Shown here in pieces: positions 3,001 to 6,000 of a DNA stretch of 55,134 nucleotides. Made by a program: the position numbers. Source of the stretch: Candidatus Woesearchaeota archaeon CG1_02_57_44 (lineage in GTDB: Archaea > Nanobdellota > Nanobdellia > Woesearchaeales > CG1-02-57-44). Every line of letters starts with the position of its first letter. The first letter of the stretch is position 1. Where the stretch lies: assembly GCA_001871415.1 (NCBI GenBank), contig MNWW01000006.1:1-55134 (forward strand), written 5' to 3'.

Positions 3001-6000
3001 GGGCAGGACCGTAGAGCACGCAAAGACGCTGCTGAGCAAAGGCGCGGATGAGGCTATCCCCGAGGAATTTGAGACCTCATTGGAGATCTTCAGCAGGGTC
3101 ATGCGCGCATATCTGGTCTCTGAAGACGACATTGACACATTCACAGCGAGCATCAGAGGCAATAACTACCAGATGCTGCGCAGCAAACACCACGGATTCA
3201 CCCTGCAGCAGGACATGATCCGCACTGAATGCGTACGCGAAGGCGCGAGAGCCGCCGGCAAGAGCCTTGACGCGCTAGGGATGCGAAAGCAGCATGGTGT
3301 CAGCGTGCTTGCTGTCCGTCGGGGCAAAGAGATGTTCACGAATCCAGAGTCAGGGTTCACCCTCAGCTCAGGTGATACGGTCATCCTTTTTGGCACACCA
3401 GAACATATGGGCAGAGCGTGCAGGTTGTTCACACATGACTAACCCTGAAAATGTACCGGGCATACCAGAAATGCGCCCTCGAGGGATCTCGATATCCTTT
3501 GCTTGAGGCACCAGCATCGCGCGCAATTCTTCTGCTCTGCGGCGATTCTTGAGCATTCCATGCGTCGTGCCATCCTGCAAGGCACACATCTTGTAGGTGT
3601 CATCGCACTTCTGCACGATCAACGATGTGAGAGCGCGCACATAAAAAATCTGCGACAACCTTTAAATACCCATGGGCATTTTTCGCGCCTGCGGGCCCGT
3701 AGCTCAGCCTGGTAGCGTGGGCCAAAGACCCAGGCCAGGAATAGAGTGACGGTCTTATATGGCCGCCAATGGACAATTGGTCTAAGAGAGCCGTTGGTCG
3801 GGGGTTCAAATCCCTCCGGGCCCATTCATAATGATTGTGGGACTGAGGCCCAAAAAGCCGATACGTCCCACTCGGGGCTGATAAGGGCGGAAGGCCCTTA
3901 TGTTCCGGAATCTCTCCGGGCCCACTTCCGCTCTTTAAGGGGAAGTCAGGACAATACAGAGCCGCGGTGGCACAATCTGGTACTGCGCAAGCCTGGAAAG
4001 CTTGTTTCCGCAAGGATTTCCCGGTTCAAATCCGGGCCGCGGCGTGCTTCTATTCTACCATATCCCATCACCACCAATCACAACAGCCGCGGGACGGGCC
4101 CAGGAATGCACAAACATTCCTCGTGTCCGGGCCGCGGCGATTTCTATTCCACTTACTCCGACCAAAATCTATTCAAACCCAGCCGCGGGACGGGCCCAGG
4201 AATGCACAGACATTCCTCGTGTCCGGGCCGCGGCGTACACTTCCTCCTCGCAATGCATCAGAAAGGAGGCACACCCCTGCCGGCCCGGGCCCAGGAATGC
4301 ACAAACATTCCTCGTGTCCGGGCCGCGGCGATTTTCTTTTCTGTCTGCGCGCCATCAACATTTAACAATACGCACGGAATTCCCGAATCTATATGACCGT
4401 CTCCCACCGACCGTTCTTTGCTGGATTATCAAAACCAGTAGAAGGCCAGCCGTACCAGAATCCTGTGGCGCATGCCCTGGTCATCGGAGGCCTGTCGCGT
4501 CTCGCGCACATGGCGTATCGCGTCTCATATCGAAACCTTGAGCATCTGGCACAGGAGAGCGCATTCATCCTCGCACCTACCCACCAGCGCATGCTCGACA
4601 TACCGCTGACAGGACGCGCCCTGCTGCAGGGCACCGGTAGGCGCGCGCTCTACATCATGAAAGAGGAACTGCTGCACACTCGCTTTGGCTCGTTGCTGCA
4701 CGCGGCCGGTGGATTACCTATAGCCCGGGGAGGCAGCACGCTGGTGGATGCGACTGATGGTGATCAGATGACAGTCGCGTATGACAACTCGCAGAGCTTC
4801 GAGCATGCTGGCGCAGCGCTGCGGGCAGGATCACCGCTTGTGGTGTATTTGCAGGGCACACGCTACAAGGACATCATGGGCCCCATCAATCCCGTAGCTG
4901 TCAAGCACTGGCTCAGGCAATCCATTGATGTTGCGCAGCAGCGCGACCAGGATGTGCCCATCATCCCCCTGGGCATATCATACCAGAATTCTTCCAGTCC
5001 CGGCTCGACCATCACAATTGCCGCAGGCCCCGCTCTGAAGCCAGGCGACATGCGAGCCACGACCTACGCGCTGCACCTCGCGCTCGCGACATTGAGCGGC
5101 TGCTATCCTCTGGAGGAGCAGCGTCGGCCCGCAGTGGATATCGCGGAGCGCGGCGAGCATTTCGTCAACCCGCATGTCGAGCAGGAACTAATGGAATGGG
5201 CGAGCATGGAGCCGTATGGGTCTGCGAGCAATCGGGGACCCGCGCCTGAATGCATCGCCCTGCTCACGGACCACTGCGACTACACCGAAAGCCGCGCGCT
5301 CGTGCGACGCGTGGTGGCGCCGTCGACACACGATGCTGCTCTCGAGCAGCTGGTGCTCAGCGCGTCGCTCTCATCCTTCGCCGATGGGCTTGCGCCTGAA
5401 GGCAAGGACAATGACCTGCGCAGGGCGTACTCGCGGACATCAGCGCGACTGGCGGCTGTCATGCATAGGGAAACGAACTGACGCAGGAATAGAAAGGGCA
5501 ATGGCTCAAGACGGTCAGCGTCCCTGCATCACACGCGAGCCCTCCGTCACACGCAAATTCTGTATCACACACAAGCCCTGCATCAAGATCCAGTGTACAA
5601 CGGCAAGCGCAGGGTCTGCACGGTCCCCATCTTCGGATCGCTGTCTATGGTGAGGCTGCCGCCATTGGCGCGGGCACATAAGGTTGCGCTGGCGTATCCC
5701 AGGCCTGTGCCCCCCTGGTTCTTCTTTGTCGTGCAGAAGGGTATCTCGGCCTGCAACTTGGCGAGTATGTCAGGAGGAATCACCTGAGGATTGAGCAGTC
5801 GCAGGCGGGCCATGGTTTCCGTCGTGTCCAAATCTAGGGACAGGACATTCTCTCGTCCATCAATCACGCCTCGGGTCGTGTCCGGATACGCCATGGCCTC
5901 AAACGCGTTGGTGATGATGGGCCGCAGCAGATGCATGTCAGCCATATCCCTGTCCGCATAGACCTGCACCGGCCTGGCGCAGTGCACATCATAGCGCGGC

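Follow-up and report, generated by a model that had tools for sequence, protein, structure and literature searches.

The window is a 55,134 nt contig (MNWW01000006.1) of Candidatus Woesearchaeota archaeon CG1_02_57_44, whose genome assembly amounts to 1.53 Mb at 57% GC and is 82% complete. A first-pass annotation had proposed a tRNA gene missing from the RNA table at 3693-3824 on the forward strand, and this gene is real. It shares its entire acceptor stem with tRNA-Ile(GAU) from the same genome, the discriminator A73 lies at 3824, and splicing in silico yields an Ile-type body with a UAU anticodon in a regular cloverleaf. The CCA end is not encoded, and the host genome contains one protein that we take to be RNase Z-like. 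A TATA-like element on the same strand (3661-3668), approximately 25-32 nt upstream of the tRNA, reads as a putative archaeal promoter. The default run of ARAGORN misses the gene, and with the intron option on the program assigns the unspliced sequence to Val(gac), as reported earlier; this identity is an artefact of modelling one intron only. Removal of either intron alone leaves ARAGORN without a call, and the Ile(tat) call of the first-pass annotation is reproduced when both are cut. Exon 1 (3693-3713) encodes tRNA nt 1-20, namely the 5′ strands of the acceptor stem and D-stem and the D-loop to U20. Exon 2 (3742-3759) encodes nt 20a-37, with U34-A35-U36 at 3756-3758 and U31 at 3753, which pairs with G39. 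Exon 3 (3789-3824) encodes nt 38-73, comprising the 3′ strand of the anticodon stem, the T-arm, the 3′ strand of the acceptor stem and A73.

The splice sites were assigned by enumeration of bulge-helix-bulge (BHB) motifs. The archaeal architecture of a 4-bp helix with 3-nt bulges at both sites was found in strict form at 37/38 and in relaxed form at 20/20a. The anticodon intron is 29 nt long at 3760-3788 on the forward strand, as had been claimed, and forms a strict hBHBh′ motif (h′=5, h=7) in which the H helix, 3754-3757 with 3783-3786, involves nt 32-35 in four Watson-Crick pairs; U34 and A35 are thus constrained by the helix itself. The D-loop intron on the same strand was previously placed after G19 with a length of 29 nt, which is off by one base. 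A 28 nt intron at 20/20a (3714-3741) fits better, with a relaxed HBh′ motif whose H helix, 3708-3711 with 3736-3739, has four of four Watson-Crick pairs (h′=2, h=0). The 29 nt register gives a valid cloverleaf yet does not occur among the candidates with a 4-bp H helix, so that the spliced product is indeed a regular tRNA-Ile(UAU) but of 75 nt instead of 74 nt. As 19/20 is the best register in most relatives carrying a D-loop intron, one base of doubt stays with this splice site. The host genome encodes a splicing endonuclease.

AUA accounts for 20.6% of the Ile codons in this genome and occurs in 684 of 697 long ORFs, so the codon must be read. The first-pass annotation had assigned it to tRNA-Ile(UAU) in place of an agmatidine-modified tRNA, on the grounds that TiaS is missing and that the genome has only two CAU tRNAs. 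Both observations hold in the host genome. The TiaS models PF08489, TIGR03280 and PF22641 were all negative while four of four archaeal controls were positive, and the two CAU tRNAs are one of the initiator type (contig C53) and an elongator with a 48 nt intron (contig C55), leaving this 82% complete genome with neither TiaS nor tRNA-Ile2(CAU). The missing 18% could in principle encode an agmatidine or lysidine tRNA that reads AUA and makes the UAU gene redundant. TiaS was, however, found in none of 61 genomes of the order and in none of the 301 genomes of the phylum that were searched, which belong to the class of the host and 300 of which are at least 90% complete. It likewise gave no match in 50 named genomes with the UAU gene (50 of 56 such genomes were searched) or in 31 genomes in the phylum of a Micrarchaeota-labelled genome. 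The same search recovered TiaS in 58 of 61 genomes of a non-DPANN class, that of a Thermoplasmata-labelled genome. The absence across the order and the phylum, set against this control, largely removes the caveat of completeness. A pattern for Ile-type CAU tRNAs, which had no positive control, matched in two of the 301 genomes, once by chance and once in a fragment at a contig end. TilS, which was searched for in the host genome only, was not found there either: the best match, considered as a substitute for TiaS, proved to be NcsA/TtuA-like, was the sole PP-loop match over its cut-off, and fell below that of TilS. Redundancy of the UAU gene is hence extremely improbable, and it is well supported that AUA is decoded by a U34 tRNA without TiaS, and also that this gene supplies the sole AUA-reading tRNA of a DPANN archaeon devoid of the enzyme.

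This mode of decoding is less novel than the first-pass annotation had rated it. ARMAN-2, -4 and -5 possess tRNA-Ile(UAU) without TiaS and without tRNA-Ile(CAU) (PMC3239211), and tRNA-Ile(UAU), termed Ile3, is known from Nanoarchaeum equitans and Korarchaeum cryptofilum (PMC6000648; 10.1101/614032). The present gene shares with these the UAU anticodon and the lack of both TiaS and tRNA-Ile2(CAU). The UAU genes of ARMAN-2 and Korarchaeum also contain an intron, which in ARMAN-2 is 25 nt long at 37/38 with a strict BHB motif. The additional D-loop intron sets the present gene apart from the published Ile3 genes. Moreover, the published cases amount to a handful of species-level gains, whereas the pattern described here extends over a lineage.

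A strict UAU pattern matched in 29 of the 61 genomes of the order and reversed-pattern controls in none; when near-complete genomes that it had missed were retested, four of five held a UAU gene and one gave no match. Two scans of the genome collection returned at least 120 loci and 86 loci with a UAU pattern, most of which, among the matches listed, carry the labels Woesearchaeota, Micrarchaeota, Iainarchaeota, Aenigmatarchaeota, Undinarchaeota, Pacearchaeota, Nanopusillaceae or those of various bacteria. A looser pattern matched in 26 of 80 genomes from other orders of the class, visible chance matches included, and does not establish the prevalence there. Once genes with extra introns in the T-arm or variable loop had been set aside, 168 distinct UAU genes without a bacterial label could be parsed; the 37/38 intron is kept in 164 of them, four archaeal genes being without it, while it is absent from 31 of 32 bacteria-labelled genes. 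Intron lengths range from 13 to >100 nt, and their middles are unrelated.

In the unspliced precursor, the anticodon intron is predicted to adopt a second fold. Folding and conservation suggest that intron nt 2-6 (3761-3765, forward strand) pair with tRNA nt 28-32 (3750-3754) in a 5-bp helix resembling a T-stem, four pairs of which have a probability of 0.91 and the outer one of 0.39. Folding further suggests that intron nt 7-13 (3766-3772, forward strand) pair with tRNA nt 40-46 (3791-3797) in a 7-bp mimic of an acceptor stem, with pair probabilities of 0.82-0.83. This fold leaves U34 in a 6-nt loop, and the three nucleotides after the helix, intron nt 14-16 (3773-3775, forward strand; nt 15-17 in relatives), form an ACA box to which the PUA domain of Cbf5 may anchor. 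The motif had been regarded as degenerate in this gene, a view that was dropped once tRNA nt 40-46 proved to be the partner. The combination of 5 and 7 bp is the unconstrained minimum-energy state by prediction and is 4.8 kcal/mol more stable than the BHB fold when the latter is forced. After removal of the D-loop intron, the two folds are predicted to be near balance.

The position of the ACA box is conserved far beyond this gene. The discovery set consisted of 95 introns with a minimum length of 23 nt; genes with extra introns in the T-arm or variable loop (10 of 149 loci) had been dropped from it. In 42 of the 95, ACA begins at nt 15 (mean 1.7 and maximum 7 in 5000 shuffles), a figure to be read with the kinship of the UAU genes in mind, as they are not independent. 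At any other position ACA begins in at most four introns, except for nt 3 (12 introns). When ANA or NCA is allowed at nt 15, the count rises to 66 of 95 against a shuffle mean of 10.9, and UCA, GCA and AUA are common at nt 15-17. Later sets gave ACA at nt 15 in 7 of 19 and 5 of 14 introns, which brings the overall figures for long introns to 55 of 130 for ACA, 88 of 130 for ANA/NCA and 98 for the helix. ACA at nt 15 spans the Woesearchaeota, Micrarchaeota, Iainarchaeota and Aenigmatarchaeota labels as well as other orders; the exact box occurs in none of six Undinarchaeota-labelled genes. Among introns of other anticodons from the same lineage, it begins at nt 15 in none of 25 (Fisher p=5e-6). 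The 34 short introns (<23 nt) have no room for a box outside the splice helix.

The paired segments behave similarly. Intron nt 2 is G in all 95 introns and in 5 of the 25 controls. A G at the second base following nt 37 was demanded by the retest pattern and the 86-locus scan pattern, but not by the strict order pattern or the pattern behind the at least 120 loci. Pairing is possible between intron nt 2 and tRNA nt 32 in all 95 genes, between intron nt 3 and tRNA nt 31 in 86, and between intron nt 4 and tRNA nt 30 in 90. Intron nt 8-13 can pair perfectly, over 6 bp, with an exon segment in 56 of 95 genes (7.3 in shuffles, maximum 13), in 10 of 19 new genes and in none of the 25 controls. The signal extends over windows ending at nt 11-14 and drops to 6 of 95 at nt 15. 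The exon partners lie mostly within nt 19-27, in 12-14 genes within nt 40-46 and in a few in the D-loop, and the end of the helix is constant though its exon partner varies. Of the nine highest-ranking pairs among 221 by corrected mutual information, four were predicted (21:12, 30:4, 26:7 and 25:8) and five were not. We are nearly certain that a conserved intron fold exists. A single DPANN ancestor may underlie all of these genes and the box has been lost in many, so the motif could be a functionless relic of one ancestral intron. The range of intron lengths, the unrelated middles, the compensatory changes within pairs and the convergence of different exon partners on the same helix end speak against this, and we consider such a relic very improbable.

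What the fold might do is suggested by its geometry. Before splicing, the 37/38 intron would refold the precursor into a helix of ~12 bp that is capped by a loop of U33-U34-A35-U36-A37 and followed by ACA. Such a precursor would mimic the acceptor/T-arm/CCA shape, and equally the "n+15" ruler of H/ACA RNAs, that archaeal Cbf5 reads; C32 would correspond to G53, U33 to U54, U34 to U55 and A37 to A58. Cbf5 with Nop10 would then most likely convert U34 into pseudouridine, after which the RNA may switch to the BHB fold and be spliced. The n+15 rule (PMC7075261) points to U34 within one base in this gene. Archaeal Cbf5 modifies RNAs composed of an acceptor stem plus T-arm through its PUA domain with a preference for ACA over CCA, and Nop10 compensates for an absent CCA (PMC2018633), so it could also cover the short introns. 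Against this reading, ACA lies at nt 14 rather than 15 in this gene, the exact box at nt 15 occurs in under half of the long introns, and the loop has 6 nt in place of a 7-nt T-loop with ACA internal and lacking a free end. Moreover, where several unpaired uridines follow one another, modification falls on the one nearest the 5′ end (PMC7075261), which would favor U33 over U34.

As proposed, the intron would work like an H/ACA guide RNA but is not a member of the class. As in archaeal H/ACA guides, a helix is followed by ACA or ANA approximately 15 nt from the target U (PMC7075261): the box lies within 15 ± 1 nt of U34 after the lower stem, at 14 in this gene. In contrast to those guides, a single RNA would serve as both guide and target, and its ACA is internal. 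Pairing takes place in cis and involves only the strand on the 5′ side of the U, without a two-sided pocket for a separate target, and a 6-nt loop caps the hairpin where guides have an upper stem with a K-turn or K-loop. The precursor also resembles the substrates on which Cbf5 makes pseudouridine-55 without a guide, in their acceptor-plus-T-arm geometry (PMC2018633): folding places 5-bp and 7-bp helices on one strand followed by N-C-A, and the 7-nt T-loop and free 3′ end of such substrates are lacking.

The enzymes of the host are compatible with this proposal, since its genome encodes Cbf5 with PUA, Nop10, Elp3 and TruD; Pus10 and TruA gave no match there. Of 80 genomes with a UAU gene, 74 gave a Cbf5 match, and the misses fall on three of four genomes with intron-less genes versus 3 of 76 with an intron (p=0.001, uncorrected for kinship and incompleteness), a correlation that depends on four incomplete genomes. 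In the fourth genome with an intron-less gene, Cbf5 is present and its PUA was not matched. ACA at nt 15 is lacking in four other genomes whose PUA is absent or below threshold; one genome with an intact PUA also has no box, its intron being short. The genomes without a Cbf5 match hold one gene with ACA at nt 15 and one with UCA. The fold could instead serve TruD/aPus7 or another enzyme that makes pseudouridine at 34 and/or 36 or some other modification, with ACA anchoring a different protein. TruD occurs in the host and in 64 of 73 genomes searched, the frequent UCA, GCA and AUA boxes would suit such an alternative, and aPus7 needs mainly an A after its target U, which both U34 and U36 provide (PMC2651775). 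The two uridines nevertheless fit the wider Pus7 consensus poorly (PMC2651775), the fixed ACA distance and fixed helix end are hallmarks of PUA and Cbf5, and loss of the motif tracks loss of Cbf5 or PUA while TruD is kept in two of the four intron-less genomes. We regard service to an enzyme other than Cbf5 as unlikely; for pseudouridine-34 made by Cbf5 in tRNA-Ile(UAU), we put the chances at even or marginally above.

Elp3 is responsible for the C5 modification of U34. Pseudouridine-34 would stop Elp3 from adding the C5 group that permits U34 to read AUG. On archaeal ribosomes, tRNA-Ile carrying cnm5U34 reads AUG (PMC3895270), and in yeast, intron-dependent pseudouridine-34 blocks ncm5U (PMC6582322), though ncm5U34 there causes no measurable misreading of AUG (PMC6582322). 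Another account is that the intron does no more than protect U34 from Elp3 or thiolation, or set the timing of splicing by means of a folding switch; U34 would then stay unmodified, and AUG would be rejected by the ribosome or by the weak U31-G39 pair. In Mycoplasma mobile, an unmodified U34 is enough and, as in Bacillus subtilis, tells AUA from AUG (PMC3895270). Among 106 UAU genes, the 31:39 pair is U-G 71 times and U-A 29 times, against a single U31 in 119 other tRNAs, and four archaeal genes do without the intron. Removal of the D-loop intron also shifts the predicted balance from the alternative fold toward the anticodon stem (0.39-0.44 versus 0.56). Shielding would end at splicing, however, and leaves ACA at one exact distance unexplained, while U31 is also accounted for by its pairing with intron nt 3 in 86 of 95 genes. 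Shielding or timing without modification thus appears improbable, about as much so as the involvement of another enzyme. For the explanation as a whole, in which the intron is both a splicing element and a decoy that guides Cbf5 to U34, we estimate a probability of roughly 0.55. That throughout DPANN archaea, where TiaS is absent, the 37/38 intron of the UAU tRNA acts in cis as an H/ACA-like guide for Cbf5 at U34 is an evenly balanced proposition.

Archaea would in this way arrive at an anticodon with pseudouridine-34 like that of eukaryotes, by means of a guide that resides within the tRNA's own intron. Eukaryotic tRNA-Ile(UAU), in which Pus1 forms pseudouridine-34/36, is the same tRNA with an intron at the same position, and both cases would share, as proposed, pseudouridine-34 that excludes modification by Elongator (PMC6582322; PMC11408192). 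The intron of archaeal tRNA-Trp, a box C/D guide, likewise directs the modification of position 34 of its own tRNA; there, a C/D RNP performs 2′-O-methylation in trans, whereas a fold in cis is proposed here for pseudouridylation (PMC11408192). Pus1 belongs to the TruA family. The eukaryotic system uses Pus1, while our proposal involves Cbf5 and an ACA ruler in a host whose genome gave no match to TruA.

The gene itself is therefore real and of a known kind, and apart from the intron fold it is ordinary for its lineage. The literature that we searched, in which subscription papers were mostly outside the scope, contains nothing on the intron fold or on a lineage-wide absence of TiaS. The accessible descriptions of Ile3 do not deal with a role of the intron, a second fold or U34 modification, and the fold is not described in the accessible parts of PMC4652768, PMC3491384, PMC8879553, PMC13752280 and PMC3575796. 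Table S1 of PMC3575796, on archaea lacking tiaS, and the figures and supplements of PMC3239211, with the ARMAN-2 intron sequence, may bear on novelty. What appears to be new is the second fold of the anticodon intron, which recurs in many related archaea.

A U34 mutant of tRNA-Ile misread AUG on archaeal ribosomes, and the accessible account left open how archaea with U34 avoid this (PMC3895270). The fold points to a candidate enzyme, a target base and elements that can be mutated, which brings the question within reach of a short in vitro assay. If the proposal is true, prokaryotes would have, besides lysidine and agmatidine, a third way of telling AUA from AUG, one that is convergent with the intron-dependent solution of eukaryotes. 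A tRNA intron would also have been given a function under selection throughout a large radiation of archaea, and a guide and its target would be fused in one RNA.

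Downstream of the tRNA-Ser(GGA) gene (3961-4044), the window carries three direct repeats of 56 nt each (4084-4330), spaced by 95-96 nt. The 3′ end of the tRNA-Ser is copied at the end of all three, and the repeats are possibly remnants of integration sites or a small RNA repeat.

Other tRNA genes of the source genome also bear introns. Two further ARAGORN calls were wrong: on inspection by eye, the predicted tRNA-Pro at C26:32007-32106 (-) reads as a tRNA-Asp(GUC), and the predicted tRNA-Pyl at C22:11632-11750 (-) reads as a tRNA-Arg(UCU), each with a D-loop intron. By-eye inspection also revealed C/D-box-like words in the 48-nt intron of tRNA-Met (C55:6780-6902) and the 51-nt intron of tRNA-Trp (C63:6256-6380), resembling the intron content reported for Nanoarchaeum tRNA-Met. 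Contigs C14 and C47 each have a copy of the tRNA-Asn/tRNA-Ile(GAU) pair at one end, and this duplication is probably an assembly overlap.

In this 82% complete genome, a single splicing-endonuclease unit of ~200 aa was found (contig C8, L153:1474-2109), adjoining a gene that we take to be RNase Z-like. The genome nevertheless contains relaxed D-loop introns, and such introns are tied to other splicing-endonuclease types in the abstract of PMC5829648. A second subunit may be absent or divergent.

Regarding the proposed pseudouridine-34 synthase, cbf5 was noticed to be followed 94 bp downstream by tRNA-Ile(UAU) on the same strand in a single genome, G043 (C34:16654-17723). Crenarchaeal cbf5 is known to contain an mRNA intron. 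In seven genomes (G131, G105, G308, G182, G092, G178 and G058), cbf5 is broken at approximately profile position 70, which suggests an mRNA intron. The 820-aa Cbf5 frame of G142 contains an insertion that is conceivably an intein.

Among the matches listed, many bacterial records, including those of Patescibacteria and Chloroflexota, carry a tRNA-Ile(UAU) gene that lacks introns (within L032-L151 and L264-L349). DPANN-type tRNA-Ile(UAU) genes were also listed in several 'Methanosarcinales' records and one 'Binatia' record, which are probably mislabelled. The Thermoplasmata-labelled genome G330 likewise harbors an intron-less tRNA-Ile(UAU) (L034), and profile searches of this genome gave no match to TiaS, Cbf5 or TruD. 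TiaS is present in 58 of the 61 genomes of its class, and G330 possibly represents an independent switch.
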